A stretch of DNA of 15,316 nucleotides from Abditibacteriaceae bacterium (GTDB lineage: Bacteria > Armatimonadota > Abditibacteriia > Abditibacteriales > Abditibacteriaceae). The DNA lies in assembly GCA_031372065.1 (NCBI GenBank), contig JANMKN010000067.1, positions 1 to 15,316 on the forward strand. Direction: 5' to 3'. Numbering within the stretch: the first letter of the stretch is position 1; each line of letters starts with the position of its first letter. Made by a program: the position numbers and the translations under genes. Below the pieces are notes generated by a model. It saw nothing but the letters and a program-made list of their open reading frames with translations. It searched no databases and was not told where the DNA came from. Below, piece after piece: positions 1 to 14,527 of this stretch.

Positions 1-237
1 CACCCAGCGGCCCCCGCCCCACCCGCAGCCTACCTAAGCGCCCAAAAGATCCCAAACGACCAAATTGCCCCAACCCCCCCAAACGTGCTGGGGGGCGTTA
101 AAACCAACGGCTTCCCCCCACATCCCGCCACAAAAACGCGCCCCCCCCACGTGCGGCGCCCGCTTTTGTGCTGCCGGTGGTCGGAGAACCCCTTGCCAAC
201 ATAGTCTCTTGTTAGCTTGGTATTAGGGGAGCAGCAA

Positions 238-741
238 TTAAAACTTCAGTGGCTTGCCATCAACTGTCATCTGCTGACGCAATGTTTTGGTGTTCTGCCT
301 TAACCACCGACCATGAATCTTTATCCAGCTGTCCTGAAACGACGAGTTAGAGATGATTGTTATCCTTTTCTTAGTGCGTGAATTGATACCAAAGGCTTTT
401 CCGAATTCTTTGGCAACTACTACGATTTTATTGTTTGATACGCTTACATTTATAACGGAGGTATGGGTCTTTAACTCTGTTGTCCGAGAGAACCACATCT
501 GCATATGCCGACTCACATCTGACCGCGTTAATCTTTGCCCTTTAATATTGAGCATTTGATAATTTGGAGCCAGTTGAGACAAGAGCGTTTTTGAATCTTT
601 ATGTGCAGTAGCAGTATCAATCGCTTGGTAAGCCGCGACAATAAAATGGCGTGCATCCTTGACCGAATCGGCATGAGCCGACAGCGTTGATAAGGCCAAC
701 GCCGAATATACAAGGGAATTTTTTATTGCTCGTATAATCAT
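238..741 (-). CDS. Secreted NTF2-like (DUF4440/SnoaL-like) protein
   Basis: 167 aa; signal peptide ending SAHA-D; NTF2-like pattern (LAPNYQMLNIKGQRLTR ... FQDSWIKIHGRWLR); AT-richer than neighbours. Confidence 0.7.
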   Translation of the reverse strand: MIIRAIKNSLVYSALALSTLSAHADSVKDARHFIVAAYQAIDTATAHKDSKTLLSQLAPNYQMLNIKGQRLTRSDVSRHMQMWFSRTTELKTHTSVINVSVSNNKIVVVAKEFGKAFGINSRTKKRITIISNSSFQDSWIKIHGRWLRQNTKTLRQQMTVDGKPLKF

Positions 742-917
742 CGAAGACTATTATGTCACACATCCAAGCCGCGCGCCGTAGCCCAACAATGCAACTCACC
801 CGCAAATTTCCGCCGTAAAAGCGCGCCTTTGTGCTGGGAAGTGCCCAAATTTGCCTGAAAAGCCGCAAAAACTCCTCTTCGGTATAATTTCGCGCTTGAC
901 GGGCTATCGAATACGAC

Positions 918-1379
918 GTGTGGCGGCATTCCTATCTCGTGTGGTGGGGCACTTTTGGTCTGCGAAGGCGTGGCGATAGCTTGCAGCAGCCCCTCCAAGA
1001 CTTGTCTCTGCCTCTCCAGCGCCTGTGGATGCTCACCCTACGTCTGTAGGCCCCTATCCGAGGCTTGTATATTCTCATTCAACATCTCTATCGGCTCATC
1101 TGAGGCTTGTGGATGTTCATCCGACGCCTGTGTGTGCTCATCCGAGGCTTGTATGTGCTCATCCGGCGCTGGATAAGCACATACAAGGTCTGGATAAGCG
1201 CACACAAGGTCTGGATAAGCAGACACAAGGTCTGGATAAGCAGACACACGCGTCGGATGAGCGCACACGCGCTCTGGATAAGCAGATACAGGTGCCGGAC
1301 GAGCGCCTACAAGCCTCGGATGAGCATCCACAGGCGCTGGATGAAGGCATACACGGCTTGGATAAATGTCAGTAGACAA
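918..1379. repeat. Array 1: 21-bp tandem repeats in two oppositely oriented arms (long imperfect palindrome centred at 1167/1168)
   Basis: Left arm units (YTGTRKRTGCTCATCCGAGGC-like) start at 981,1002,...,1149, with degenerate in-phase units at 918,939,960; right arm units (YGGATRAGCRSAYACAAGGYC-like) start at 1170,1191,...,1359. Confidence 0.92.
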
Positions 1380-1401
1380 GCGGCGCAGGTTTGCCTACAA
1401 T
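1373..1401 (+). promoter_or_regulatory. sigma70-like promoter at the end of array 1
   Basis: TAGACA (1373-1378), 17 bp spacer, TACAAT (1396-1401). Confidence 0.6.
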
Positions 1402-1423
1402 AAAAATATCGCCGAAAACGTTG

Positions 1424-1617
1424 TTATAAGAGTAGTTTGAAAAGTCCTCCCTCTCCCCAGCGCAGCGATTGGGGGAGAGGGTTGGGGTGAGGGGATTTCT
1501 TGTATTGGAAGAGGTCGCAAGCGACCTCGTGCCCCTCATCCGGCCCAGAGGGCACCCGCCTCTCCCCAGTGGGGAGAGGAATCCAGTTCCAGTTCCGACT
1601 TTTCAAACAAATTATAA
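1424..1617. mobile_element. MITE/REP-like element in the 5' UTR of the 323-aa gene
   Basis: Perfect 12-bp inverted repeats GTTTGAAAAGTC (1435-1446) and GACTTTTCAAAC (1597-1608); TTATAA on both flanks (1424-1429, 1612-1617); two internal CCTCTCCCC...GGGGAGAGG hairpins and GAGGTCGC-AA-GCGACCTC (1511-1528). Confidence 0.7.
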
Positions 1618-1626
1618 GGAGAACTT

Positions 1627-2598
1627 ATGCCCCGCTTAACTCTGCAAGAGCGCGAAACCGTGATGAACGACTTCGCCGGTCACTACGAAGAACTGTTGGT
1701 GCAGCATCCCGCGTGGGAAATCGAAACGGGCTTTGGCCTGACCCAACTGCGCGCCTTGTATCAAGACTACCGCGCCAAACAAGCGTCCATTGTCACGCTC
1801 GAAAGCACCACCTTACGCAATCAACGCGCCCAGCGTGACACCTTGTTTGGCGCCACAGCCGATGATGTCAATGGTGTCTGGTTTGTGCTGTCGCTTTACA
1901 AGAAAATGACGCGCTCCCGACTGCCCAACAACAGCCCGCTGCGCAAAACGATTCCGCAAATTGGCTTGGTCTATCCCGGCACTTACGACGCCATTTTGGG
2001 CGGCTTCATCGAACATTGGAAGTTAGTCAACGAGGCGTTGCCGCCAACCAAACCGCTGCTTATCGCCGGAAAATCGCTGGCTAATATAGAAGCGATTCGC
2101 ACTCAAATCGGCGGTCTTGCGACCACGGTGGACGAAGCGTTCCAAACCCGCCTCTCGGTGATGCGCGCCGAACGCGAACAGCTTTTCGGCGATGTCATCG
2201 AAGACGAACGCGAAGCGACTTCGGTTATTGGACGCCTCGACTCGTATAGCATTGAAGTGCAATCGCAGTTTCCCGGCAGCACTTTGGCGCAAACTCTGCC
2301 GCGCATTTTCCCCGAAGAAGGCGAATTGCCGCGCTTTCCCTTTAATTTCCGCACGTCGGGCGTTGATGTTGTCATCTGGTGGGCGATGGTGGAGTCTTTG
2401 AAAAACCGAGCCGCCGTTCTCTTTCTCAAAGAAGGCATCTTTGAGCAAACCCAACCCGTTCCCACGGCGCTACCTTATAAAGTCACCTTTGCGGGCGCCG
2501 AAGCCCAAGACGAACTGGATGAAGTCGAATTGCGCGACGACAACGGCATAACCATCGCACATGGCCGCCACGATGCCAGTTTGATTGAGCCAGCGTAA
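1627..2598 (+). CDS. Hypothetical cytoplasmic protein: two tandem helical repeats plus C-terminal beta-sandwich (FN3/Ig-like)
   Basis: 323 aa; RBS AAGGAG just upstream; internal duplication (LRNQRAQRDTLFG/LSVMRAEREQLFG; SPLRKTIPQI/STLAQTLPRI); beta-strand-rich C-terminus; no signal peptide. Confidence 0.8.
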   Translation: MPRLTLQERETVMNDFAGHYEELLVQHPAWEIETGFGLTQLRALYQDYRAKQASIVTLESTTLRNQRAQRDTLFGATADDVNGVWFVLSLYKKMTRSRLPNNSPLRKTIPQIGLVYPGTYDAILGGFIEHWKLVNEALPPTKPLLIAGKSLANIEAIRTQIGGLATTVDEAFQTRLSVMRAEREQLFGDVIEDEREATSVIGRLDSYSIEVQSQFPGSTLAQTLPRIFPEEGELPRFPFNFRTSGVDVVIWWAMVESLKNRAAVLFLKEGIFEQTQPVPTALPYKVTFAGAEAQDELDEVELRDDNGITIAHGRHDASLIEPA

Positions 2599-2668
2599 AA
2601 GAGCCGGCCCGCCTTGCCCTTTGCAGAGAAAGGAAACCTCTGGCCAGCGCCAAACGTGAAAAGCGCCC

Positions 2669-3034
2669 ATGAAAAAACGTATTTTAACAGCGCTCCTTGC
2701 CATCGCTTCTGTCTCTGTTGCCGCCGGATTCGCGCAAGCCGCTCCCAAAGCCAAACCCGCGCCGAAGCCGGTGCCGCAAAAGATCACTATCACCTTGCCC
2801 GAAGGCTACAAAGACAATAAAGTGGCCGTCAAAGCGGGCAAACCGGTGGCGTTGACGTTCTTTCTGAAGAGCGATGCCGGTTGCGGCGACACCGTGACGG
2901 TGCCAGCGGCCAAGTGGAAAAAAGACCTCAAGATCGGCGAAAAAGCCACCGTGGTTTACACGCCGAAGAAAAGCGGCAAATTAGCTTTTGCCTGCGGCAT
3001 GGACATGATGAAGGGTTCGTTGATCGTCAAGTAA
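2669..3034 (+). CDS. Exported cupredoxin-domain protein (CupA/EfeO-type Cupredoxin_1)
   Basis: Signal peptide ending AQA; Pro/Lys linker; motifs KAGKPV, GCGD and YTPKKSGKLAFACGMDMMKG. Confidence 0.85.
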   Translation: MKKRILTALLAIASVSVAAGFAQAAPKAKPAPKPVPQKITITLPEGYKDNKVAVKAGKPVALTFFLKSDAGCGDTVTVPAAKWKKDLKIGEKATVVYTPKKSGKLAFACGMDMMKGSLIVK

Positions 3035-3062
3035 GGCGGGCTGTGACCCGTTTCTGCTAAAC

Positions 3063-3099
3063 AAAAAGCGTCTCGTTTTAAGAAACGGGACGCTTTTTT
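3063..3099. terminator. Bidirectional intrinsic terminator
   Basis: AAAAAGCGTCTCGTTT...AAACGGGACGCTTTTTT hairpin with A/T tracts between convergent genes. Confidence 0.85.
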
Positions 3100-3122
3100 G
3101 TTTGTGAACCGTTAGATTGTTA

Positions 3123-3773
3123 CTATGAAAACCCTTCAGGCAGTTTTGACCAATCGTGCAGAAGATCGGCGGGAAAATGAAAGCCATCCGGCCAGACAAG
3201 CGTGCCGTATTCTTCATCTATCACGACTTGTTTGAAATATTCTCTATCCGACAATTCCTCGTAGTATGCTGATTGCTCCCAGAGTGACTCAAAGTTGATG
3301 GTTTGCCGTGTGTTATCATCGAATTCTATCCGCAAAGTGTAGGGGCCTTTGATTCTGAAGTTAGTTACACGATATTTTGAAGCGGCGCTCGGCATTATGG
3401 CGTCTCTCACACGCGGCAACAGTAAGCAAAAGCCTGCGGCTGCGGTCAGAAAACCGGGCACCAAAAACAAGAATAAACTGAAACCGTAGAATGCTGCATT
3501 ACGCATCGCTTCTACTTGTTCTTGCTGTTCACCGGGAGAAGGGTGCCGCGTTTGTTTATGGCGTCTCATATTAGTGATAATGTTGCAACTTGCTTTGGCC
3601 TGCGGCCAGCGTTGCCAGAGCAAGAACAAACCAATGGCGCTAAAGCAGGCATAGGCTCCAAAAGTCGCAATGGAGCCGACACGTTGCGACACCAAAACAG
3701 TCATGGCGAAATCGCCGGCGAATAATAATGCCAGCCAAATCAACCACTGAATTTTCTTTAGTTTCTCTATCAT
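3123..3773 (-). CDS. FxsA-family membrane domain fused to a DUF2442 domain
   Basis: N-terminal TM helices with the FxsA-type LFLVPGFLTAAAGFCLLLPRVR motif; C-terminal YTLRIEFDDNT...FKQVVIDEEYGTLVWPDGFHFPADLL matches the DUF2442 pattern. Confidence 0.7.
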   Translation of the reverse strand: MIEKLKKIQWLIWLALLFAGDFAMTVLVSQRVGSIATFGAYACFSAIGLFLLWQRWPQAKASCNIITNMRRHKQTRHPSPGEQQEQVEAMRNAAFYGFSLFLFLVPGFLTAAAGFCLLLPRVRDAIMPSAASKYRVTNFRIKGPYTLRIEFDDNTRQTINFESLWEQSAYYEELSDREYFKQVVIDEEYGTLVWPDGFHFPADLLHDWSKLPEGFS

Positions 3774-5659
3774 GGCGACACGATGAACTTGCGTTGCGTG
3801 GTAGTAATAAACCGATTCTTGTCGTCGAAAATGGAAATCTTCAGCGTTTGCGCGCCGGTTTTTAAAGTCGTCAAATCTATATCTATATTATGCGCGCCGG
3901 GGCGATTCGAGGCGTAGACGAGTTTGTCGTTGAGCGCCGCGTAAACTTTGGGACGTGATACATAAGTTTTAAGCGTCACAACAAAACGCGCGGTGTTATT
4001 GAACGAGGAAGCGAGGCTAATTGTCGCATTGTCATTGAAGACAAAGGGCAGGGCGGGGCGTTGGTCGGCCAAGTGTTCCGGGCCTCGGAGAAAATACGGC
4101 GATTGGGCGATTTGACGAAATTGCTCTATGATTTTCGGGCGCTCGGTGAGGTTGTAATTGTTCAGTTGGCGCCCGGCTTTGGCATGAACCAAGTTGTTGG
4201 CGTCGAACCAGTTAATCATCTTCACGCGCGGAAACAGCGCGGGCAGGGCACTATACATTTGCGCCATCTTGTCTATCGCGAAATCCTCGCGCAACTTGCG
4301 GTCAGCGGCGGCCCTGTGACTGGCGGCGTATTCGCAAATGGCAATCGGTTTTCGCTGCGCATAAAGTTTGTAAATCGGCTCCAAAAGCGTGGTTGGATTA
4401 TCTAAAAGCGCCGGGCGTTGTGGATTATTATCGTAAAACGGCACGCTATAAAGGTTGACGCCCACCCAATCGCAGCCGTCGTCGCCGGGATAATAAAGGG
4501 GAATGGTGTCAACGGGAATCGCGCCCACGCACCAAATTGTGGCGGCCAGCGGCGCAGTTTCGCGAAAGACGCGATGCACAAGGCGGAATTTCTCCTTGTA
4601 AAGCGCGGGATTCTTGCTGTAAGGAGTCCAAAAGCCATTCATTTCGCCCGCGAAGCGAATAAAAAGCGGCCAATCGGTAGCGCGGGCAGCCTTGGCCCAA
4701 CCGCGCAAATACGCATCGTCGCGCACTGCCTTGATGTCCGTCGGCTCCCACGCGATATGCGGAATCACGTTGGCGGCTTTGCAGCGTTCAATCCATTTCA
4801 GCGGAAACTTCTGACCATAAGAGACATACATGAAATGGCTGGCGAGCGCGACTCCTGCGACTTTGGTGAATTCTTCTGCGGTCTTGTGGCTTTGCCAGTT
4901 TTCGTCGAAATAAGAGTCTTTGAGTTGATCGTCGCGGTCTATAAAGGCGCCCAAGTAACAACCGACAATCGGTTCTAATTTCGCGCCCCGATAAAGCAGT
5001 TTGATTTCTTGATCGCTGGCCTGCCGCTCCCGAAAAACTTGCAAGCTGGTTTCATAACGCGCGGCCTCTTGCTCCACTACTAAAGCGCTATTGAGCGCGG
5101 TGTCTTGCCTCGCCGCACTTTTTTCTTTGGCGAGCGCGGCGCGATACATGGCAGCCTCGGCACGTCGCGCTTTGGCAGCTTCGGCAAAGGCGAAGTTTTT
5201 CAGATAAATATCGCCCAAGCGACGCAGCGCGGCATAAGTCGGATATTTTTGTTGCTTCGCACGAATGGCGGCGATTTCTGCCAAATCGCGCCCGTTAGAA
5301 ACTTGCGGCACAACGGCGGCGCCGGGCAATTTGAGCGGTAAATCATACGGCGATTTCACCACGATATTCGATGGCGGCGGCTCTGCCGGAGCCTCAATTG
5401 TTGGCTCCGTAGTAGGTGTCGGCGCTGGTGTTTCGTTCGCGGGTTCTGGCAGTGTTGAAGTGGGTAGTGTTGAAGATGGCTGCGCCGCGATTTCCGGCGG
5501 CGCGTTTTGCGCTGGCACACAAGCTGAAGGCAAGATGCTAAATGCCAGAAAAAAGAGCAGAAACCATTGTTGCCGTTGCTGTAATGATTCAGGTGTGCCG
5601 CGTTTTACCGTTTGGCTTTGATCCGGCAAAAGCGAAAAATTGTTTTTTATTGGGAGCAT
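3770..5659 (-). CDS. Glycoside hydrolase family 26 (beta-mannanase-like), membrane-anchored or lipoprotein
   Basis: IPHIAWEP, LFIRFAGEMNGFW (acid/base Glu), YYPGDDGCDWVGVNLY, KPIAICEYA (nucleophile); hydrophobic N-terminus with LPSAC and a Pro/Thr linker; start codon uncertain. Confidence 0.85.
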   Translation of the reverse strand: MLPIKNNFSLLPDQSQTVKRGTPESLQQRQQWFLLFFLAFSILPSACVPAQNAPPEIAAQPSSTLPTSTLPEPANETPAPTPTTEPTIEAPAEPPPSNIVVKSPYDLPLKLPGAAVVPQVSNGRDLAEIAAIRAKQQKYPTYAALRRLGDIYLKNFAFAEAAKARRAEAAMYRAALAKEKSAARQDTALNSALVVEQEAARYETSLQVFRERQASDQEIKLLYRGAKLEPIVGCYLGAFIDRDDQLKDSYFDENWQSHKTAEEFTKVAGVALASHFMYVSYGQKFPLKWIERCKAANVIPHIAWEPTDIKAVRDDAYLRGWAKAARATDWPLFIRFAGEMNGFWTPYSKNPALYKEKFRLVHRVFRETAPLAATIWCVGAIPVDTIPLYYPGDDGCDWVGVNLYSVPFYDNNPQRPALLDNPTTLLEPIYKLYAQRKPIAICEYAASHRAAADRKLREDFAIDKMAQMYSALPALFPRVKMINWFDANNLVHAKAGRQLNNYNLTERPKIIEQFRQIAQSPYFLRGPEHLADQRPALPFVFNDNATISLASSFNNTARFVVTLKTYVSRPKVYAALNDKLVYASNRPGAHNIDIDLTTLKTGAQTLKISIFDDKNRFITTTQRKFIVSP

Positions 5660-5749
5660 ACGGAATTGGCGTAAAGGGCGATGAGAATTTCAAGAAGCCA
5701 GTTTACCAATTCCCGTTTTCCCAACTTTCGTTTTTCGCTCGCCTCCGCG

Positions 5750-5779
5750 TTGACGCTTGCCACTCAGATAGCCTACAAT
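5750..5779 (+). promoter_or_regulatory. Putative purA promoter
   Basis: TTGACG (5750-5755), 18 bp spacer, TACAAT (5774-5779). Confidence 0.5.
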
Positions 5780-5812
5780 TATAAGGTTTGTCCGCCGTAT
5801 CCCAAGCCTTTT

Positions 5813-5880
5813 CAGTGGTTGGTGGGCAGTGGTCGGTGATCAGAGAATTCTGCCCACTGCCTACTGCCCACTGCCCACTG
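5813..5880. repeat. Palindromic 7-bp-unit repeat (CAGTGGK)n...(CCCACTG)n
   Basis: Four heptamers on each side of CAGAGAATTCTG; forms a hairpin in the purA leader. Confidence 0.8.
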
Positions 5881-5915
5881 TCCTTGGATGGAAAAGGGCG
5901 GAATGCAGGAGAAAC

Positions 5916-7223
5916 ATGGGTTCAATAGTCGTAGTGGGCGCGCAGTGGGGCGATGAAGGCAAGGGCCGCATCGTGGACTTGCTGGCCGAGCGCGCTGATG
6001 TCGTCGTCCGCTTTCAGGGCGGGGCCAATGCCGGGCACACCATCATCGCCGAAGGTCAGGAATATGTGTTGCATCTCATTCCCAGCGGCTTTGTGCAAGG
6101 CAAAACGTGCTTGATCGGCAATGGCGTCGTGATTGATTTGCCGACGCTGTTTGAAGAAATTGACGGCCTTGCCGAGCGCGGCTTTGAGTTCGACGGCAAA
6201 TTGTTCGTCAGTGATCGCGCGCACCTGACTTTGCCGTATCATCGCTTGTTGGACGCGGCGCGCGAAGCGGCCAATCCAGCGCGCAAAATCGGCACCACTA
6301 TGCGCGGCATCGGGCCAACTTACGTTGACAAAATGATGCGCATTGGCGTGCGCGTGGCCGATCTTTTCGACGAAGATTTGTTGGCCGAAAAAATCGCCGC
6401 CAACTGGGAAGATAAAACGCACGGCTTGCGTCACCTCACTGAAGAACAGCGCCCTCATCCCGAAGCGGTTTTAGCGCAGTATTTGCTTTATGCCGCGCGC
6501 CTTAAGCCTTTTGTGACTGATTGTTCCGTTATTCTTGATAAAGCGCGCCGCGCGGGCAAGCATATCCTATTTGAAGGCGCGCAGGGCGCCGGTTTGGACA
6601 TTGATTTCGGGACGTATCCTTACGTTACTTCGTCCAACACCATCGCGGGCGGCGCTTGCACCGGCAGCGGCGTTGGGCCGACCTCCATTGACCATGTGGC
6701 GGGCATTGCCAAGGCTTATTGCACCCGCGTCGGCGATGGGCCGTTTCCCACTTTGATGGAAAGCGCCATCGAAGAACAATGCCGTCAAATCGGCCACGAA
6801 TTTGGTGCCACGACAGGCCGCAAACGCCTCTGTGGTTGGTATGATGCCATGCTGGTGCGCCACGCTGCGCGCGTCAATGGCATGAGCAGTTTGGTCATTA
6901 CGAAGTTGGATGTGCTGGATCACTTTGAAGAACTCAAACTTTGCACCGGCTACTTGTATAAAGGCGAGGCGATGGATCATTTTCCGACTTCGCTCAAGCA
7001 ATTAGGCGAGTGCGAGCCGGTTTACGAAACCTTCCCCGGCTGGATGACGCCGACGGGCGATGCGCGCCGTTTCAGCGATTTGCCCGACAATGCGCGCCGT
7101 TATATCGAGCGCCTCGAAGAAGTTTCTGATGTGCCGGTTTCGTTGATTTCCGTTTCGCCCTCGCGCGAATCGTTTATCTGCCTCGATCATTCGCTGTTGA
7201 CTTACGAAGTCAGCCGGACTTAA
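5916..7223 (+). CDS. purA: Adenylosuccinate synthetase
   Basis: GAQWGDEGKG, RFQGGANAGHT, IGTTMRGIGP, EGAQG, EFGATTGRKR, TKLDVLD; RBS AGGAG before ATG 5916. Confidence 0.99.
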   Translation: MGSIVVVGAQWGDEGKGRIVDLLAERADVVVRFQGGANAGHTIIAEGQEYVLHLIPSGFVQGKTCLIGNGVVIDLPTLFEEIDGLAERGFEFDGKLFVSDRAHLTLPYHRLLDAAREAANPARKIGTTMRGIGPTYVDKMMRIGVRVADLFDEDLLAEKIAANWEDKTHGLRHLTEEQRPHPEAVLAQYLLYAARLKPFVTDCSVILDKARRAGKHILFEGAQGAGLDIDFGTYPYVTSSNTIAGGACTGSGVGPTSIDHVAGIAKAYCTRVGDGPFPTLMESAIEEQCRQIGHEFGATTGRKRLCGWYDAMLVRHAARVNGMSSLVITKLDVLDHFEELKLCTGYLYKGEAMDHFPTSLKQLGECEPVYETFPGWMTPTGDARRFSDLPDNARRYIERLEEVSDVPVSLISVSPSRESFICLDHSLLTYEVSRT

Positions 7224-7231
7224 TTTTTCAC

Positions 7232-7320
7232 CACAAAGGGCACAAAGAACTTCACAAAGAAACACAAAGTAACGATGTCGTATCTTGTGTTTCTTTGTGA
7301 AATTCTTGGTGTCCTTTGTG
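7232..7320. repeat. REP-like palindrome built from CACAAAG units
   Basis: 36-bp arms 7232-7267 and 7285-7320 with 3 mismatches, right after the purA stop. Confidence 0.85.
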
Positions 7321-7333
7321 TTTTGTTCATCGC

Positions 7334-8428
7334 ATGAAAGACGAGCGCGTTGCTTCGATGATGGCCGCCAGAGGCGCGGCAACGATGGCCGTTTCCAAAG
7401 CGGCGCCCGTGGTTTTGTGCCCGCCGATTCGCCACATTGCCACGCTGCATCTCAATGGCTTGAGCGAATTGCTGTTCACCTTGCCAGCGCTTTACACCTT
7501 GCGTGAAGAGTTTCCTGATGCGCAAATTTGTTCCGTCGTGCGGCCCGGTTTGGCGGCGTTGCTGGAAGATTCGCCTTACATTAACGAGTTGCTACTGCGC
7601 CCCAAAGGCGGAATGTCGGGGCAAGCCGCGCTGATGGCGAAATTGGCCACGACACACTTCGATATAGCCTTGTCGTTTTCGCAATCGCGCCAGTGTTCGC
7701 TGCTGGCTTTTTCCACCAGAGCGCCGGTGCGCGTTGGTTATCAAGGCGCGAAAATGGAAGCGTTGCTGTCGCATCACGTCGTGGAAAACGGCCCGTTTTC
7801 GATTGACAACGCCTTAGATTTGGTGCGCGCTTTGGGCTGTGCGCCACGCCAACTCGATTATGGCGGTTTGCTGCAAATTTCTCCTGCACATGGTAAAGCT
7901 GTGCAAGTTTTGTTGGACGAAAAAGGCGTGCAAGGCGAATTTATCATCGCCAATGTCAGCGGCGAGCGCGGACGCGAGAAGGGCACCATCCACGATTGGA
8001 ATTTAGGGCATTGGACAACGGCTTTGCAAGAACTGAATAAGCGTTGGCCGGTGGTTTTAGTGGGCGGACGCAGCGCGCCGCAAGTGACGGCCCATTTAGC
8101 GGGCACTTGGGCCGATTTCGGCGGTAAATTGTCGCTGCCGCTTTTGGCCGCGCTGTGTGGCCAAGCCAAAGTATGCATCGGTTCCGACGGCGGCATTTTG
8201 CACCTCGCCGCCGCCATGAAAACGCTCGTTGTCGGCATCTATGGCCCCACAGACTGGCAGGAAACCGGCCCGCGCGGCGTTTCACATCGCATTGTGCGCC
8301 ATCCCGTCGAGTGTGCGCCTTGTTTGCTCAATAAATGCAAATGGCAAGGCGCCGACCACAAAAAATGCCTCACCCAAATCACGCCGGACGAAGTAGTTAA
8401 AGCCACGCGTGAGTTGATAGGTGTGTAG
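7334..8428 (+). CDS. Glycosyltransferase family 9 (ADP-heptose:LPS heptosyltransferase-like)
   Basis: LSELLFTLPALYTLREEFPDAQI, IGSDGGILHLAAAMKTLVVGIYGPT, CAPC; start uncertain (7334 or slightly downstream). Confidence 0.9.
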   Translation: MKDERVASMMAARGAATMAVSKAAPVVLCPPIRHIATLHLNGLSELLFTLPALYTLREEFPDAQICSVVRPGLAALLEDSPYINELLLRPKGGMSGQAALMAKLATTHFDIALSFSQSRQCSLLAFSTRAPVRVGYQGAKMEALLSHHVVENGPFSIDNALDLVRALGCAPRQLDYGGLLQISPAHGKAVQVLLDEKGVQGEFIIANVSGERGREKGTIHDWNLGHWTTALQELNKRWPVVLVGGRSAPQVTAHLAGTWADFGGKLSLPLLAALCGQAKVCIGSDGGILHLAAAMKTLVVGIYGPTDWQETGPRGVSHRIVRHPVECAPCLLNKCKWQGADHKKCLTQITPDEVVKATRELIGV

Positions 8429-8432
8429 AAAA

Positions 8433-8494
8433 TGGGGCAAGGGCGTCCCGCCCGCTTTTTGAATGCCGGGTGCGCGCGAAACGCCCGCGCTCCA
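8433..8494. repeat. GC-rich REP-like inverted repeat
   Basis: TGGGGCAAGGGCGTCCCGCCCGC ... GCGCGCGAAACGCCCGCGCTCCA directly after the GT9 stop. Confidence 0.65.
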
Positions 8495-8622
8495 ATGCAA
8501 TTGGAACGTTAGACAATTGAGTTGTGACGCCTAATTGCGTTGTAAAACAGGGCTAATGAGGCGTATAAGATCGTCAATAATGTCCATAACTTCGCCAGAA
8601 TCATCAACAAAGTGAGGACTTA

Positions 8623-8745
8623 ATGAATAAACCGATTTATATGCAGCAAATGCTTTCGGCTAACGTGGGCGATGTGGTTTTGCCGGTTGAAATTCAAGCG
8701 CAGGACGCTGGTATGACATTCGTCTGGAACTCAAAGGCGATTTAG
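8623..8745 (+). CDS. Possible 40-aa small protein
   Basis: GAGGA RBS before ATG; MNKPIYMQQMLSANVGDVVLPVEIQAQDAGMTFVWNSKAI. Confidence 0.35.
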   Translation: MNKPIYMQQMLSANVGDVVLPVEIQAQDAGMTFVWNSKAI

Positions 8746-8804
8746 TCAAAGCCTATGCCATTGGGCGCAAGCCCTGCTCTATAACTTTCCAAATGTCATG
8801 AGCT

Positions 8805-9251
8805 TTATTCAGGAATTTCGGCTTCGACGAGTTTCGCCAACAAGTGCAGCGATTCCTGCCAGCCAAGGTAGCAAAGTTCTGCTGGAATCACGTTAGGCAC
8901 GCCTTCTTGCACGATATTCAACTCAGTGCCACACGATATGGGTTTTAAGGTGACCGTCATCTGAATCTCGCCGGAAAAGTTCGGGTCGTCGAATTTGTCG
9001 GTATAGCGGAGGCGCTCATTGGGCACCAATTCGAGATATTCGCCGCCGAAAGAATGGCTCTTGCCGGTGCCGAAGTTTGTAAACGACATCTTGAATGTTC
9101 CGCCCACGGTGGCATCCATGTGGTGAACCTTGCCGGTGAAGCCATTGGGCGGCATCCACTTGCTCAGGGCGTCGGCATCAAGGAACGCCTTATAAACTTT
9201 TTCAGGAGTCGCGCGAATAACGCGGTGCAGTCGGATAGTGTTTGTGGACAT
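8805..9251 (-). CDS. SRPBCC / AHSA1 (CalC-Aha1-like) protein
   Basis: IRLHRVIRATPEKVYKAFLD...WMPP...GGTFKMSF...ELVPNERLRYTD...GWQESLHLL. Confidence 0.93.
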   Translation of the reverse strand: MSTNTIRLHRVIRATPEKVYKAFLDADALSKWMPPNGFTGKVHHMDATVGGTFKMSFTNFGTGKSHSFGGEYLELVPNERLRYTDKFDDPNFSGEIQMTVTLKPISCGTELNIVQEGVPNVIPAELCYLGWQESLHLLAKLVEAEIPE

Positions 9252-9272
9252 GATTTTGTTTTCTTTCGATGA

Positions 9273-9740
9273 TTAGCCTTTTGCTTCCTCAAGCAAATAA
9301 AAGACATCCGTGCGAATCTTGGACGCATCGTCGTTCCAATCTTCTTCCCAGTGACCATAAATTTCCCATGAAACACCAGAAATTGAGTGTCCATGCTCGT
9401 CGCACCAGACGCGAATGGCGCTATGCGCTTCGCCAAGGTTTTGGTAGGGGCCAAAATGGGTGGCCGTCGCCACGCGGCCTGCGGGCAACTGCGAACAATG
9501 CACGCGCTCGTTGCCGACAAACGGCTCGGCTACTTCGGCGCCCACCTCGACTGAACCCTGCGCATCCAAATATAAGGCCACATGGCGTCCGGGGCGCGGC
9601 AGACCGGCAGACTTTATGAAGTTCCAAACCTCGCCGCAAGCTGCCGGCACAAACTGCGCCAGTTCTTCGAGGCGCACAATGCCCCGAATGACTGCTGTGC
9701 AAGTCGGCTCCGATTGGGTGATTTTAATTTCGTAGGGCAT
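9273..9740 (-). CDS. GyrI-like small-molecule-binding domain protein
   Basis: LPAGRVATATHFGPYQNLGEAH...SWEIY...RTDVFYLL. Confidence 0.9.
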   Translation of the reverse strand: MPYEIKITQSEPTCTAVIRGIVRLEELAQFVPAACGEVWNFIKSAGLPRPGRHVALYLDAQGSVEVGAEVAEPFVGNERVHCSQLPAGRVATATHFGPYQNLGEAHSAIRVWCDEHGHSISGVSWEIYGHWEEDWNDDASKIRTDVFYLLEEAKG

Positions 9741-9806
9741 GATGTTGGATGGATAAACGCCTTAACCTACCTTTCGCTGAATAAATTCCACATTGGGCTG
9801 ATGACT

Positions 9807-10859
9807 TTAGGGCACCTTCCACAGATCAACTTTGATGCCTCGACTTGCCGCAGCCACCAGCTTACCATCAGGCGAAAATTGCACATGGTAGGCAGAAAAC
9901 CGATCGCTTTCGCCATGAAATGTGTGCAAAATTTGACCTGTCGCCACATCCCACAACTTCATAGCTGACGCACTGGCGGTAACAACTTTTTTGCTGTTGA
10001 GTGAAAAAGCCACCGCATCTACTCCAGAAACAGCGTTACCAAGTTTTCCCATAAAGATAGTTTTGCCACCAGTCAGGGAGCGTATTTGTTGTCCGGTTAA
10101 AGCGTCCCATAATTGCACATTTGCTTCTCCCCAACACGAAGTTGCTAAGAGCTTGCCATCAGGCGAGAAAGAGATTAATGTTTCCAGAGTTGAGGAAGCA
10201 GCCGTATTTATCGCAGGTTGGATAACCTTTATCTCCTTCGCAGTGTTCCAATCCCACAGTTGAACTTTGCCTGACCAACATCCTGTGGCTAAGGTTTGAT
10301 TATCAGGAGAAAAAGAGACAGAATAGGCATCTCCTGTCGTTGGAATTTGCCTTAGCATTTTCCCCGTTGTGGTGCTTAATAATCTGTTTCCTGCGGCTAA
10401 AACGTCTCCGTTCGGCGAGAATGCGAGAGGACTAAACTCTTGTTGCAATTGAATTGTGTGTGTGATTTTCCAATCGCTTGTTGTATATATAGTCAAATTA
10501 TTTCCTGCGCTTGCCGCAAGCAACTTATTATCAGGCGAGAAAACTACATGGCCAATTGTGTCATCCAGCCGTAGGGATTTAGTGAGTTTCCAAGTTGCTG
10601 TATCCCACACTTTAACTGCGTAATCTTGACCTTCCAGTCTGCGAACGCGCCCTTTTTCTTTCACAATCACTGTGGCGCTATTAATACCAGCAACAGCCAG
10701 CCATTTGCCGTTTGGCGAAAAGGCGACATCAGAAGTCTCTAAATTGTAGCCTGTAAGCGAGCGCCAAGGTTTGCCGCCGTAGGTGCCTTTTGCGGAATCA
10801 CCTCTGCTACATCCCACAAAGTAAGGTGCAAACAAAAGAAGAAGCAAAAATCTATTCAT
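9807..10859 (-). CDS. WD40-repeat lipoprotein
   Basis: Lipobox FVG-C; about 7 repeats of FSPDGKLLA...V(K/Q)LWD; AT-richer than neighbours. Confidence 0.9.
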   Translation of the reverse strand: MNRFLLLLLFAPYFVGCSRGDSAKGTYGGKPWRSLTGYNLETSDVAFSPNGKWLAVAGINSATVIVKEKGRVRRLEGQDYAVKVWDTATWKLTKSLRLDDTIGHVVFSPDNKLLAASAGNNLTIYTTSDWKITHTIQLQQEFSPLAFSPNGDVLAAGNRLLSTTTGKMLRQIPTTGDAYSVSFSPDNQTLATGCWSGKVQLWDWNTAKEIKVIQPAINTAASSTLETLISFSPDGKLLATSCWGEANVQLWDALTGQQIRSLTGGKTIFMGKLGNAVSGVDAVAFSLNSKKVVTASASAMKLWDVATGQILHTFHGESDRFSAYHVQFSPDGKLVAAASRGIKVDLWKVP

Positions 10860-10940
10860 TGGGATACCTGCCTGACTTCAATTTTAACCTATTACTTTTG
10901 ATAAAAGGACACGCAAAAGCGGCTTTTGAGCATAAAAACA

Positions 10941-10962
10941 GGCATTTTTGGCCAAAAATGCC
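10941..10962. promoter_or_regulatory. Perfect 22-bp palindrome, possible operator
   Basis: GGCATTTTTGGCCAAAAATGCC is its own reverse complement. Confidence 0.5.
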
Positions 10963-10974
10963 GAAAATGGGGCT

Positions 10975-11184
10975 GCACTCGTCGCGGATGTCGTTTCACC
11001 CGTCGAAAATGTCGTTGCACTCGTCATCGGTGCAGTTGCATTCGTCACGAGTGCAGCTGCATTTGTCGTGAATGAAATCGCATTTGTGGCCGGTGAAACA
11101 GCATTCGTCGCGGGTGAAATGGCATTTTCGACGGGTGAAACAGCAATTATCGGCGATGAAAGCGCATTTGCAGACTTGAACGGG
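10975..11184. repeat. Array 2: ten 21-bp units forming a long imperfect palindrome centred at about 11067
   Basis: Units start 10975,10996,...,11164 (GCAYTYGTCNNNRRTGMANNN-like); perfect 19-bp inverted pair at 10993-11011 and 11123-11141. Confidence 0.9.
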
Positions 11185-11204
11185 GCAAAATGCGTGGTTA
11201 TAAT
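11176..11204 (+). promoter_or_regulatory. sigma70-like promoter at the end of array 2
   Basis: TTGAAC (11176-11181), 17 bp spacer, TATAAT (11199-11204); RBS AGGAG at 11233-11237. Confidence 0.7.
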
Positions 11205-11242
11205 GCAAAATGGCTCAGAATTTTAGTCCTATAGGAGATAAC

Positions 11243-11872
11243 ATGGCACAACTGAAAACCAGTCTGCGTGGCTTGACGATTCCCCAAAAGATTCAGCGCG
11301 GACGCGATGTGGAAGCCGGTTTGCGCGGCAATGTCAACCTGACGAACGGCACCGCTTTGGCGGATAACATCAAAGCCGCTGCCGACGATTTGGCGGCCAA
11401 AGAAACCATCCATTCCGACAAGCAACGCGAGGCGATTCAGGCCGGAACCGACAAAGACACCAGCGAAACCAACTTTGACCGCGTTTACGCGGCCACCGGA
11501 AACGACGCCGAACGGCAAATCGGCGACGACGAGTCGAAACTGCTGTCCACCAACTACAAACTGCAAGCCGAACCCGGCCCGTCGCAGGAAGTAGGAAAAG
11601 TGCAAAATCTCACCGTGACGACCGGCGATGAAGAGGGCGAATTAGACGGGCACTGGGATAGCGTGCCCGGCGCGCAATCTTATGCCGGCCAGATTTGCAT
11701 CGGCGATACGCCCGACCCCGCCAAATGGCAATACACCAAACCGCTGGGCCGCAAGTCCAAAGCAACTTTTGACAGCTTGGTTTCGGGCACGCGCTACTGG
11801 ATTCGCATCCAAGCCGTCGGCGCTTTAGGCCCCGGCCCGTGGAGCGACCCCGTTTCGCGCATCGCGCCGTAA
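11243..11872 (+). CDS. Cytoplasmic protein with N-terminal helical domain and C-terminal fibronectin type III domain
   Basis: 209 aa from ATG 11243 (RBS AGGAG); FN3 signature VQNLTVTTG...WDSVPGAQSY...FDSLVSGTRYWIRIQAVGALGPGPWSDP; no signal peptide. Confidence 0.88.
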   Translation: MAQLKTSLRGLTIPQKIQRGRDVEAGLRGNVNLTNGTALADNIKAAADDLAAKETIHSDKQREAIQAGTDKDTSETNFDRVYAATGNDAERQIGDDESKLLSTNYKLQAEPGPSQEVGKVQNLTVTTGDEEGELDGHWDSVPGAQSYAGQICIGDTPDPAKWQYTKPLGRKSKATFDSLVSGTRYWIRIQAVGALGPGPWSDPVSRIAP

Positions 11873-11890
11873 AAATCAGCCACTGGGAAT

Positions 11891-14527
11891 TTAAGGCGTT
11901 ATATCTGGCGCGAAAACCATCCATTCGGTCAGACCGGTTTTGCCGGGTAAATTATGAACGAATGTGGCGCGCAGTTTATCAGTTTGCACTGGCTTGATAA
12001 TCATTTCATTGGGTATTAAAAGAGTCGGCTGCGCCGGGTCGCGCCGCACTTCTTCGACATCGTGCCATGCGCCGTTTTTCCAATATTGAACTGAAAACCT
12101 TTTGGGAATGCGCACGCCGCCGCCATCGGCCCACAGGCAAAAGACGAGTCGTTCGACGGTTTGCGGCATGGCAAAATCGAGTTGCACCCAATCATTTTCG
12201 TTGGGCGATTCGTAGCTTGTCCAGCGATTGCGCCCACCGTTCATTTCGATTTTTCCATCGTTGAGTTCGCCTATCGTATCGAAGCGGCTGGTGTAAGAGG
12301 CGCTGGCTTTGGCCTCGCGTGCCAAGTTGTTTTGCAGTTTCGCTTCGGGCAAAGGCAATGGCGCTTCGCCCCAAATTTCCCATTCGGTGAGGCCAACCGC
12401 CGCGCCATTCTGCGGCTGCAAAGTGGCGCGCATTTTGGTGGTTGATACTGTTGGAAATTCGACATTATTCGCACGGTGGCCTTCGGGCAAAGTCGGCGAG
12501 CGTTTTTGCCCCGCGACGCTTTTCCACTGCGCGCCGTCCCAGAATTGCACATCGCAAGATTGTGGAGCGCGCACAGCTTTTCCTTCGCCATCATCAAGAA
12601 AATAGAGTTGCACTTTTGAGACAGTTCGCGCCACGCCAAAGTCGGTTTCAATCCATTCGTCAGCGCTTTTCGAGCCTTCATTTGTCCAGCGATTGAGCGG
12701 GCGTGGCGAGGTATAGTAGAAAACGCCATCAACTAAATTACCCGGCGAAGTGCCGTCGCTGGTAAATGAAGTGCGCGTGCGCGGAAAATAACTTCCTTCA
12801 TTGTTGACTGCGAAATTGTGCCACGTTTTAGAATCGGGAAGTGCGACACTATTTATCGTTTTGGGCAGTTCGCCCTTGATTTTTCCGAGCTTTTTTGCGC
12901 TGGCGATGCGCTTTCCATCGGCCCATAGGCTCAAACCAGAGCCGCGTTTATAACGCGTGCCGCTTTTGTCCCACACGATGCTGATTCGATGGCCGTGATA
13001 GGCCAAATCGTCCAAGCAAAAATAATCCCAGTCATCGGGCGCCATTGGATTGACTTCGATGATGTTATCGGCGCGCGGGCGCAAACCGGCGAGGCCGGTG
13101 ATGATTAAATCGTTGTAAGAGGAGTGAAAATAATGCTCGCTGTGATTGAAATTATCGGTCGTCCAGCGCCCATTTTCGGGGTCGGACATTTCGGCCAAAT
13201 AAGGCACGCCATCTTTGCGGCTACTGCGCGTATACGATTGCAAAACCGTCCAATAATCGGCTTTGGAAATCACGTTTTGCGGGTAATCATTCAGCACGTT
13301 CGCCATCGCTTGCAGCGTTTGCGCATTGGCATAGGGCCAGTTGTTGCCGCTCCACACGCACGAACCCTGCGCCACAAAGAAAAGCGGGTCGTTTCGCTCG
13401 GTTGTGTAAAGGCCAAACGGCGCCAAGAAGACGTTTTTATCAACGATGTTTTTCCACGCGACTTCGTAGCCTTTGTTTTTATCGGGCAGATTAAACAGCC
13501 ACGGCACAAAGCCGATTAACTCGCGGCCATGTGCATCGCCCGCGAATTTTCCATCGTCGTAAATGCGCGTTTTGGCTTTGATGGTATGGCCGTCTTTTTC
13601 TTCGTCATTGGCAAATTGCGCCAAGAAAAATTGGCGGCGTGTGTCCCATAATTCGCTTTGCACGCGCGCTTTTAATTTTTGCGCTTTATCGTCGTAGTCT
13701 TTGGCTTTTGTAGTGTCGCCTGCTAAGGCCGCCGTTTGCGCCATTGCTTTTAAATCGCCGTAAATGTAAGCGTTGAGTGTCGGGCGATAGCTTTCGCCGC
13801 CATCAAAGCCGTATTTGGTTTGGCGCGAGCCGATATTGGTTTCCATGCCGTCGTGCATTCCGCTCCATTTAAACATTTGATGTGCGTTGTCCCAATGTTC
13901 TTGCATCCAGCCATCATATTGCTTTTCCATCGAAGGCAAGCGATTTATCAGGAACTTTTCGTCGTCGTTGACCAAATAATTGGCCCAAACCGCATCGCCA
14001 TACCAGTTGGAATAGCTGCGCGGCTGCGCGCCCGGCGTGTTGAACCAATAGCGAATAAAATCATCGGTGATTCTTCTATCTTTAAGCCAGCGCAATTCAT
14101 AAATTTGCAAACCCAGTGGGCAACTTATGGCGCCATAACGCCCCGACCAGTTGGGGCGGTCTATAAATTCGGTGAAGGTGTAACCGCTTTCGGGCGAGCC
14201 ATACGTCATGTGTTTGGTAGCGAGTTCCCAGCGGTAATAATAGGTCGCGTCAATGGCGCCATCGGGCGAATCCCAAAACGGAATGCGCGCTTTAAACCAT
14301 GCGCTGTCACGGTTGTCCCACCACGAAAAACGCTCCAACTGCTTTTGCTTATCGAGAATAAATGGCGCTTTGCGATTGTCGCTCAGAGGGTTTTTCAGCG
14401 GCCCGACTTCAGTTTCTGTTGGTTGCTGCGAATAAAGCGCGGGTGCCGCGAAGAGGGCGATGCCGAGCAAAATCCAGCGGCCCCTTTTTTTGAGATAGTG
14501 CATAAAAATGAACCTTGTGTTGCGCAT
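11891..14527 (-). CDS. Secreted (alpha/alpha)6 glycoside hydrolase (MGH1-like, resembling GH142 beta-L-arabinofuranosidase) with two discoidin (F5/8C) domains
   Basis: Signal peptide; YYYRW, TEF, DGMET, RPTLNAYIYG, RELIGFVPW, CVWSGNNWPYA, HYFHSSYNDLIITGLAGLRP; two C-terminal 'RWT...(E/D)W(I/V)..DF...GLTEW' modules. Confidence 0.8.
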   Translation of the reverse strand: MRNTRFIFMHYLKKRGRWILLGIALFAAPALYSQQPTETEVGPLKNPLSDNRKAPFILDKQKQLERFSWWDNRDSAWFKARIPFWDSPDGAIDATYYYRWELATKHMTYGSPESGYTFTEFIDRPNWSGRYGAISCPLGLQIYELRWLKDRRITDDFIRYWFNTPGAQPRSYSNWYGDAVWANYLVNDDEKFLINRLPSMEKQYDGWMQEHWDNAHQMFKWSGMHDGMETNIGSRQTKYGFDGGESYRPTLNAYIYGDLKAMAQTAALAGDTTKAKDYDDKAQKLKARVQSELWDTRRQFFLAQFANDEEKDGHTIKAKTRIYDDGKFAGDAHGRELIGFVPWLFNLPDKNKGYEVAWKNIVDKNVFLAPFGLYTTERNDPLFFVAQGSCVWSGNNWPYANAQTLQAMANVLNDYPQNVISKADYWTVLQSYTRSSRKDGVPYLAEMSDPENGRWTTDNFNHSEHYFHSSYNDLIITGLAGLRPRADNIIEVNPMAPDDWDYFCLDDLAYHGHRISIVWDKSGTRYKRGSGLSLWADGKRIASAKKLGKIKGELPKTINSVALPDSKTWHNFAVNNEGSYFPRTRTSFTSDGTSPGNLVDGVFYYTSPRPLNRWTNEGSKSADEWIETDFGVARTVSKVQLYFLDDGEGKAVRAPQSCDVQFWDGAQWKSVAGQKRSPTLPEGHRANNVEFPTVSTTKMRATLQPQNGAAVGLTEWEIWGEAPLPLPEAKLQNNLAREAKASASYTSRFDTIGELNDGKIEMNGGRNRWTSYESPNENDWVQLDFAMPQTVERLVFCLWADGGGVRIPKRFSVQYWKNGAWHDVEEVRRDPAQPTLLIPNEMIIKPVQTDKLRATFVHNLPGKTGLTEWMVFAPDITP

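Follow-up and report, generated by a model that had tools for sequence, protein, structure and literature searches.

Two loci about 10 kb apart on one bacterial contig were described as sharing an unusual layout, in which a palindromic array of 21-bp repeats is followed by a promoter and by the gene of a helical protein with an FN3-like end. The question raised by this layout is whether array and protein belong together as one genetic element and, if so, what recognizes the array and how it came to its sites. The window analysed here is the whole stretch of 15,316 nucleotides from an Abditibacteriaceae bacterium (contig JANMKN010000067.1), and it contains the following features.

121–219, reverse strand: attC-like repeat that closes the cassette gene, multi-copy in the genome (14 BLAST matches) and in relatives (matches in G001–G003)
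238–741, reverse strand: DUF4440 gene (Pfam PF14534, above cut-off) and probable integron gene cassette, directed away from array 1
750–903, no strand: by alignment, a copy of the attI and integrase promoter found in the family's integrons (core 781–787, -10 at 883–888)
917–979, no strand: degenerate units at the outer edge of array 1, still in register, common to arrays on contigs C281 and C382 with different centres
980–1378, no strand: array 1, with 19 units of 21 bp whose orientation flips at 1168/1169, so that the left arm is inverted relative to the right
1373–1401, forward strand: predicted sigma70-like promoter match, -35 in the last array unit; hexamers and spacing are the same in a paralogue on C369
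1429–1616, no strand: 188-nt MITE-like insertion in the 5' leader with a short target repeat at both ends; relatives on C208, C331 and C182
1627–2598, forward strand: 323-aa protein, two tandem helical repeats of ~110 aa and a C-terminal, probably beta-rich domain; pI 5.0
10950–11180, no strand: array 2, 11 units of 21 bp in one orientation, each partly palindromic
11176–11204, forward strand: predicted sigma70-like promoter match, -35 in the last array unit
11243–11872, forward strand: 209-aa protein with helix 13–27, a 58-residue helix 36–93, a short helix 97–101 and FN3 113–209; pI 5.1, model pLDDT 95.5

The two loci and their proteins

The 21-bp period claimed for the arrays is confirmed by lag-21 identities of 0.61 in array 1 and 0.63 in array 2, compared with a best lag of at most 0.32 and 0.35 in dinucleotide shuffles, while the outer units of array 1 (917–1000) taken by themselves are not significant (0.43 versus shuffles up to 0.46). 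Dyad symmetry was also found in both arrays, with scores of 11.1 (shuffle maximum 4.7) and 7.5 (shuffle maximum 3.9), but a mirror of two arms exists only in array 1, since all units of array 2 run in the same direction. An independent assembly of a public run, which may be the source sample, is identical over 796–1476, 6699–11007 and 10992–12400. The arrays are not CRISPR, as had been stated: the degenerate units stand head to tail without spacers, none of the 15 window proteins belongs to a Cas family and the Rfam scan gave no CRISPR.

The promoters fared less well. Matches to a sigma70-like -35/17/-10 with the -35 in the last unit are present at both loci, but taken alone they are at chance level (1 found versus 1.3 expected, and 2 versus 0.8), and a fixed -35 position was rejected as a general rule of such modules. 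The supposedly constant distance from -10 to ATG measures 38 nt in locus 2, and in locus 1 it comes to 37 nt once the insertion is subtracted; it spans 5 to 56 nt in other high-scoring modules and is therefore not a fixed feature. The insertion itself is a multi-copy MITE as proposed, with full-length relatives on the three contigs listed above and dozens of partial copies.

The left flank of locus 1 carries an attI site and an integrase promoter, as indicated by alignment with integrase-linked regions of relatives: 750–903 aligns over 153 nt with the sequence that precedes the integron integrase gene of L202, and it also aligns with five other integrase loci. The DUF4440 gene is placed between the attI-like core and the repeat at 121–219, which resembles an attC in its core-site patterns. 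No integrase gene lies beside this attI and array 1 begins in its place; the sole full integrase of the genome is found on contig C351.

The internal helical repeat of the locus-1 protein has a profile probability of 99.7%. The protein has 53 database matches and fits no Pfam, NCBIfam, PADLOC or PHROG family, and the best match of its family in a PDB sequence search is an ESAT-6-like chain (E 0.042). The beta-sandwich claimed for both C-termini proved to be a true FN3 in the locus-2 protein, where structure comparison of the predicted model gave Z 14.7 and an rmsd of 1.5 over 90 residues; the Pfam FN3 score lies below the cut-off for this protein and above it for its relatives, and the fold search was filled by FN3 matches, so it is informative on the FN3 part alone. 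The claim was not confirmed for locus 1: no FN3 match appeared among 28 family members, and fn3 occurs on 23% of members of one Atlas neighbour cluster. A search for longer fused forms of the family, which is weak evidence, found none. A fold shared by the two proteins was likewise not confirmed, with no BLAST match, a whole-profile probability of 1.8%, 0.26% for the C-terminal domains and 18% for the best pair of helical units. Neither N-terminus is hydrophobic, in agreement with the reported lack of signal peptides, and both proteins are net negative (-12 and -5). Neither protein has a recognizable catalytic domain, the window genes include no motor ATPase, and no virus could be confirmed to carry a relative of the locus-2 protein. 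The defence and phage libraries returned nothing convincing.

Arrays and partner genes beyond the window

Both arrays are real, yet two such loci are no rarity, because the genome holds about 300 arrays with periods of 20, 21, 41 or 42 bp, which fall into ~130 sequence families and occupy roughly 1% of the genome. Lag 21 accounts for 242 arrays, compared with 0–19 at the other lags from 9 to 40. The arrays are located between housekeeping genes, their commonest repeated words are A/T runs, and the identity of neighbouring units declines from 0.68 at the array centre to 0.37 six units outward. About 68 arrays adjoin a gene from a dozen long-helix protein families, among which the beta-sandwich may be present or absent, and about three quarters of the arrays have no partner gene. 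These lone arrays are enriched in convergent gaps (49/178 versus 218/1382, p 0.0002). Remnants of partner genes were sought beside them, and the only 2 matches in 234 were further whole partner genes (controls 1/234). A few arrays do retain promoter or gene stubs.

Seen from the gene side, the link between array and gene is strong. The scan upstream of homologues that the preliminary description had suggested found an array at 8 of 9 relatives of the locus-1 protein in this genome, and at 15 of 21 loci in other genomes. For the locus-2 protein, 63 metagenomic relatives could be tested, and 41 of them have an array (downstream in 1), against a background of 181 of the 4141 genes of this genome (4%). 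An array flanks 60 of the 69 testable partner genes in this genome, a count that is partly circular because the families were seeded from array neighbours; four to five genes of the c3 family have no array. The median pI is under 6 in nine partner families, the helical unit matched no known DNA-binding family in family searches, and a partner encoded at another place in the genome scores above the PQLLE (NF052641) cut-off.

Array and protein had also been proposed to form a co-evolving module. As a module they are real and widespread. Tight co-evolution of their sequences is not borne out, because the array sequence drifts faster than the protein, most arrays are gene-less, FN3 is optional and one partner family has its array downstream instead of upstream. 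Array family and protein family agree in 9 of 11 pairs, whereas 22 of 37 array families with at least three members include a partnered one, which is not above chance (permutation mean 23.7). The likeness of array profiles is only 0.6 at 75–90% identity of the helical domain and near background below 50%, and this drift fits recognition of shape better than recognition of sequence. Periods of 20 or 41 bp accompany 16 of 49 two-unit proteins and 1 of 72 one-unit proteins, although these are related sequences, the counts by family are 4/7 and 1/5, and length was the only basis for classing several of the families.

The lone arrays are lineage-specific. The arrays that precede glyA, cmk and hemC here are missing from all 14 orthologous sites in relatives, and the hemC array occupies a junction at which three of five relatives have hardly any space between the genes. 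Five genomes in which no partner gene was detected had no array in the 600 kb sampled, and five genomes with partner genes had no lone array in 398 kb. Three array families inspected with their flanks have no common ends, neither terminal inverted repeats nor target repeats, and no common end word, attC-like or other, was found across 54 modules. A mobilising enzyme for the arrays was not found; this genome has 7 Y1 genes, genomes without lone arrays in the sampled DNA also have 3–8, and no host reverse transcriptase is present in this 94%-complete genome.

What reads and spreads the arrays

Our preferred reading, which we hold tentatively and at somewhat less than an even chance, is a selfish dispersed element that consists of a phased array and the gene for a long-helix protein, which likely coats the array. 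Spread of such an element would leave many array-only copies. The protein would assemble along the array with one dimer per two turns of DNA, and its ~110-residue helical unit, as a dimer or within a two-unit protein, would be the reader that sets the period. The coat could reach the -35 element and thus damp the gene's own promoter. Slippage inside the palindrome would renew the centre and push older units outward, so that sequence drifts while spacing holds. A host recombination enzyme may help the arrays to reach new sites; it is proposed because neither protein has a recognizable catalytic domain. FN3 would be an optional add-on.

The conservation within 196 arrays peaks at 10.5 nt (share 0.21) and lies below the permuted level at 3 nt, and the arrays therefore look like non-coding sites phased to the DNA helix. 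Among the roles that the preliminary description had listed, the results favour a selfish element and phased sites for protein binding, and a structured ncRNA loses support.

One would argue that a host factor which wraps or bends DNA, such as gyrase or a nucleoid protein, reads the array. The array would then be a topological site or promoter enhancer exploited by the helical genes and spread in the manner of REP/BIME, and the partner would act otherwise, for example as a filament or an exported protein. Mirror arms together with the 10.5-nt signal, the abundance of A/T runs, the bias to convergent gaps, the acidic partners, the fast drift of sequence and a 41-bp array before the gene of the genome's integron integrase all speak for this. 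The accessible text of one study describes a gyrase motif of E. coli that covers 130 bp and has two flanks with periodicity, and it names BIME-2 repeats as gyrase sites (PMC6379681). However, one host reader leaves unexplained the 20- and 41-bp periods with two-unit partners, the agreement of array and protein families and the absence of arrays from close relatives in the sampled DNA. We regard this as a serious but rather doubtful alternative.

It is unlikely that the array gives a long hairpin RNA, bound by the helical protein or cut into short guides. The folding z-scores of the two arrays are -11.4 and -8.5 and the leftover integrase promoter in locus 1 points into array 1, but good folding is expected of any palindrome and the arms pair at only about 0.6. 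Additionally, the gene promoter starts at the array end, so the mRNA would exclude the array. A slight excess of G-U over A-C arm mismatches is seen when the arrays of the genome are pooled (351 versus 289, p 0.016), but 20 loci lean each way and 39 metagenomic arrays give 262 versus 251, so the wobble bias lends a hairpin RNA no support. No Rfam family came near its cut-off.

Arrays that are neutral minisatellites, which hairpin-driven slippage would create, which nothing would read and which a fast-moving gene family would carry along, would agree with uniform centres and decaying edges, with ~130 unrelated sequence families and with the gene-less majority of copies. Slippage alone does not fix a period of 20.5–21 bp across unrelated sequences and distant bacteria, nor does it give a conservation peak at 10.5 nt, and this explanation appears quite improbable.

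An element derived from or moved by an integron, with the array replacing the integrase gene at attI and the integrase moving the array, is suggested by the position of arrays on the integrase side of 8 of 12 testable attI-like sites (cassette side 0/16, random windows 25/500) and by the presence of an integron integrase in the genome. The available part of one report states that integron integrase can use non-classical sites (10.1101/2022.09.11.507474). Yet only about a dozen of the 300 arrays adjoin such a site, module ends share no attC-like word, and 10 of 11 integrase loci in relatives have nothing above score 17, the eleventh showing only a faint 21-bp periodicity within a GC-rich frame. 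Derivation from an integron, or movement by one, is thus very unlikely.

That the arrays encode seven-residue repeat peptides which pair with the partner's long helix is barely credible. Open frames cross both arrays and are slightly commoner than permuted (1.49 versus 1.29), but they are absent from 49 of 196 arrays, and heptad coding was rejected for the lack of codon-period conservation and for periods of 20 and 41, which break the frame.

Taken further, the arrays might belong to selfish elements of bacteria that form a class of their own, new to science. A long-helix superfamily would act there as a molecular ruler, each protein polymerising on its own array with one dimer per two helical turns and with spacing counting more than sequence, and would, without a transposase of its own, drive copying to hundreds of sites, taking over integron promoters too. 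We consider this wider proposal speculative and rather improbable. In any case, these repeats form a class in which spacing is retained although the sequence turns over, and the class is tied to a dozen unnamed families across distant bacteria. It suggests a way of recognizing DNA, or of spreading, that current catalogues of repeats and transposons do not cover, and array-protein pairs are numerous in the genome, where the proteins have one or two units and the periods are 21 and 41 bp.

Comparison with known systems

Our literature search found no description of an array paired with an FN3 or helical protein. Iteron-Rep systems of plasmids and the centromere-adaptor pairs of partition systems (parC-ParR of R1, parS-omega of pSM19035) have phased direct and inverted repeats that overlap the promoter of a neighbouring gene; here the phased repeats abut the partner's promoter match at both loci, and the proposed mechanism would work alike. 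In contrast to those systems, family searches gave no match to a winged helix, ribbon-helix-helix or motor ATPase, and the arrays are chromosomal, scattered among housekeeping genes and mostly gene-less. The FN3 of the locus-2 C-terminus (PF00041) occurs here without a signal peptide and is missing from many partner families, and the entries for PF00041 and NF052641 show no link to repeats.

REP/BIME repeats are associated with RAYT transposases. The likeness lies in hundreds of intergenic palindromic repeats, lineage-specific bursts, a bias to the 3' ends of genes and a few copies beside a partner gene, and the arrays described here are likewise dispersed intergenic palindromes with a 3'-end bias. 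However, the partner is a long-helix protein, with no Y1_Tnp/HUH match in either protein or in 28 family members, and the arrays are tandem runs of 200–400 bp with a fixed period, whose sequence varies between families within one genome.

The BrickBuilt minisatellite MITE of Porphyromonas gingivalis, as presented in the accessible part of its description, is an intergenic tandem array of 23-nt units with 19 dispersed copies and promoter elements, and it resembles our arrays in its dispersal, unit size and promoter elements (PMC4596501). It is one sequence family with leader and tail ends, and that part of the source reports no partner gene (PMC4596501). The arrays of this genome, in contrast, form ~130 families without shared ends and keep a period near whole helical turns.

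The two arrays and proteins of the window

Both 21-bp arrays lie where the preliminary description placed them, together with several further features.

Features of the window
121-903, integrase-less integron site: copy of attI and integrase promoter, putative DUF4440 cassette gene, attC-like repeat
980-1378, array 1, lag-21 identity 0.61
1429-1616, MITE-like repeat, of which this genome, G001 and G003 carry dozens of partial copies; fragments often lie 3' of partner genes
1627-2598, + strand, locus-1 protein gene (323 aa)
3123-3773, single ORF with FxsA and DUF2442 domains, which may be a fusion or read-through of two genes
7226-7326, near-perfect 100-bp palindrome between purA and a glycosyltransferase gene, multi-copy in genomes G003 and G005
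8639-8768, intergenic, with matches in the relatives G001-G003
10950-11180, array 2, lag-21 identity 0.63
11243-11872, + strand, locus-2 protein gene (209 aa)

Dinucleotide-shuffle controls for the lag-21 identity reach a maximum of 0.32 (array 1) and 0.35 (array 2). The dyad symmetry claimed for both arrays is real by score (11.1 and 7.5 vs. at most 4.7 and 3.9 in shuffles), but two mirror arms are present in array 1 only, where they flip at 1168/1169; the units of array 2 all have one orientation and its symmetry comes from partly palindromic units. Across 104 arrays, neighbour-unit identity falls from 0.68 at the array centre to 0.37 six units out, and the outer units of array 1 reappear in arrays whose centres differ. 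A sigma70-like promoter match indeed starts in the last unit at both loci, but alone it is at chance level, although a paralogue on contig C369 has the same promoter hexamers as locus 1. The near-equal distance from the -10 to the ATG (37 and 38 nt) proved to be no general rule, as it is 5-56 nt in other high-scoring modules, i.e. arrays with an adjoining partner gene. Both arrays occur with zero differences in contigs of a public freshwater-sediment run, possibly the source sample.

In the model of the locus-2 protein (pLDDT 95.5), two short helices flank one of 58 residues, and an FN3 domain follows (Z 14.7 in a fold search). Profile comparison finds two tandem helical repeats in the locus-1 protein at 99.7%, and family searches gave zero match for its C-terminal domain. 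No sequence similarity between the two proteins is detectable, the best link being 18% between helical units; a shared fold therefore stays unproven. Neither protein has a hydrophobic N-terminus, in agreement with the claimed lack of a signal peptide. Both are acidic, and the locus-2 family keeps basic residues at 3, 5, 16, 171 and 206.

Arrays and partner genes across genomes

A lag scan of the 6.14-Mb assembly, in which the window is contig C125, gave 242 arrays at lag 21 and 0-19 at each other lag from 9 to 40. After merging of periods there were 316 arrays, of which 227 repeat every 21 bp, 39 every 42, 34 every 41, 12 every 20 and 4 every 22, and 17 lie within long ORFs; a second, independent filter gave 307, and the 300 arrays kept form 133 sequence families. 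Partner genes, which encode long-helix proteins, were assigned to arrays by profile search (59), inspection (7) and translated search (2). Their products make up about a dozen helical-looking families of 120-330 residues, with or without a beta-sandwich, joined by profile links of 72-91% for some and weak ones for others; one partner passes the NCBIfam PQLLE cut-off, and in one family the array is downstream of the gene. Judged by eye in 54 partner genes, a terminator-like hairpin is present 3' of many. Broken or truncated partner genes adjoin intact arrays on contigs C233 (474-1083), C351 (49941-50668) and C298 (16016-16174). A Y1 transposase gene lies directly downstream of a locus-2-type module in genome G004 (C1, about 1335200-1336500; L084), and two modules or arrays on C106 and C343 of this genome are likewise near such a gene.

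Viewed from the gene side, the association with arrays is strong. The locus-1 family has an array at 8/9 copies in this genome and, elsewhere, upstream at 15/21 loci and downstream at none, two of the six misses having less than 150 bp of flank. Metagenomic members of the locus-2 family carry it upstream at 41/63 loci and downstream at 1 (80 loci fetched, 17 partial or short-flanked ones excluded, at least 350 bp upstream in those kept), as do both named genome records. The background rate is 181/4141 genes. The association is weaker among relatives of two small families (3/13 upstream, 3/8 downstream). From the array side, about three quarters have no partner gene, and 56/234 of these lone arrays miss a long gene on one flank, mostly at contig ends.

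Lone arrays precede glyA, cmk and hemC in this genome, and the orthologous sites of relatives are array-free in 14/14 cases. The hemC array (C253, 7789-8066) occupies an operon junction, where space for a lost gene is absent; its first unit overlaps the stop codon of the upstream gene. Similarity to the target sequence may guide array insertion, as at this junction. Spare intergenic DNA is at most 150 bp at 80/178 lone arrays, which prefer convergent gaps, and some are decayed modules retaining stubs of a promoter or gene. The 200 kb sampled from G004 contain 8 arrays. Five genomes in which partners were not detected gave zero (600 kb sampled), and so did five partner-bearing ones (398 kb). 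Therefore, array bursts are patchy among genomes and partner genes are insufficient for them. Searches for shared ends of arrays or modules, for a reverse transcriptase in this genome and for a Y1 transposase distinguishing burst genomes found none.

Mechanism and its alternatives

As to mechanism, we tentatively infer a selfish array-plus-gene element, in which the partner's helical unit would read the adjoining array. The best clue hints at physical coupling of array and protein. Periods of 20 or 41 bp accompany 16/49 proteins with two helical units vs. 1/72 with one, and array and protein families are concordant in 9/11 pairs, although kinship of sequences inflates both counts. By standard rises, a helix of 58 residues is about 8.7 nm long, and 21 bp of DNA cover about 7.1 nm. 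It also speaks against a reader element that most partner families are acidic, that array sequence drifts faster than protein and that large array families contain a partnered member at chance frequency. That a host factor wraps the array DNA is possible but rather unlikely.

One would argue that the array acts as an RNA hairpin, since both window arrays fold well as RNA. However, such folding is expected of any palindrome, and the arms of metagenomic arrays differ by similar numbers of G-U and A-C mismatches (262 vs. 251); in this genome they number 351 and 289, with 20 loci leaning either way. These counts favour action as double-stranded DNA, and the hairpin is improbable. Neutral slippage appears slightly less probable again.

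Window 750-903 aligns with the DNA that precedes integron integrase genes in relatives, namely attI and the promoter, as far as the start codon of the integrase, and the DUF4440 gene to the left looks like a gene cassette. Among about 14-16 attI-like copies in the genome, an array is present on the integrase side at 8/12 testable sites and on the cassette side at 0/16, a link limited to about a dozen arrays. An integron origin of the element is quite doubtful. The genome's own integron integrase gene has, on the integrase side, a 41-bp phased array (L193 1185-1400, contig C351) composed of the local promoter motif, which suggests that arrays can originate in place; none comparable was seen at 11 integrase loci of relatives.

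Peptide coding is hardly credible: across-unit conservation in 196 period-21 arrays is highest at 10.5 nt, the helical repeat of DNA per turn, and under the permuted level at 3 nt, 49/196 have no open frame, and arrays of locus-1 gene paralogues have periods of 20 and 41. Therefore, the arrays are non-coding, with spacing held at about two helical turns.

Relation to known systems

A description of such an array-plus-gene element was not found in the literature outside subscription journals. The arrays lack the defining properties of CRISPR and MITE families, and arrays and partners lack those of REP-RAYT. REP/BIME repeats resemble these arrays in manner of spread, and iteron or centromere arrays resemble them in layout; the latter, however, are served by a Rep or partition protein, and family searches gave no such match for the partners here. 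The system is real, bigger than first noted, and fits no known family.
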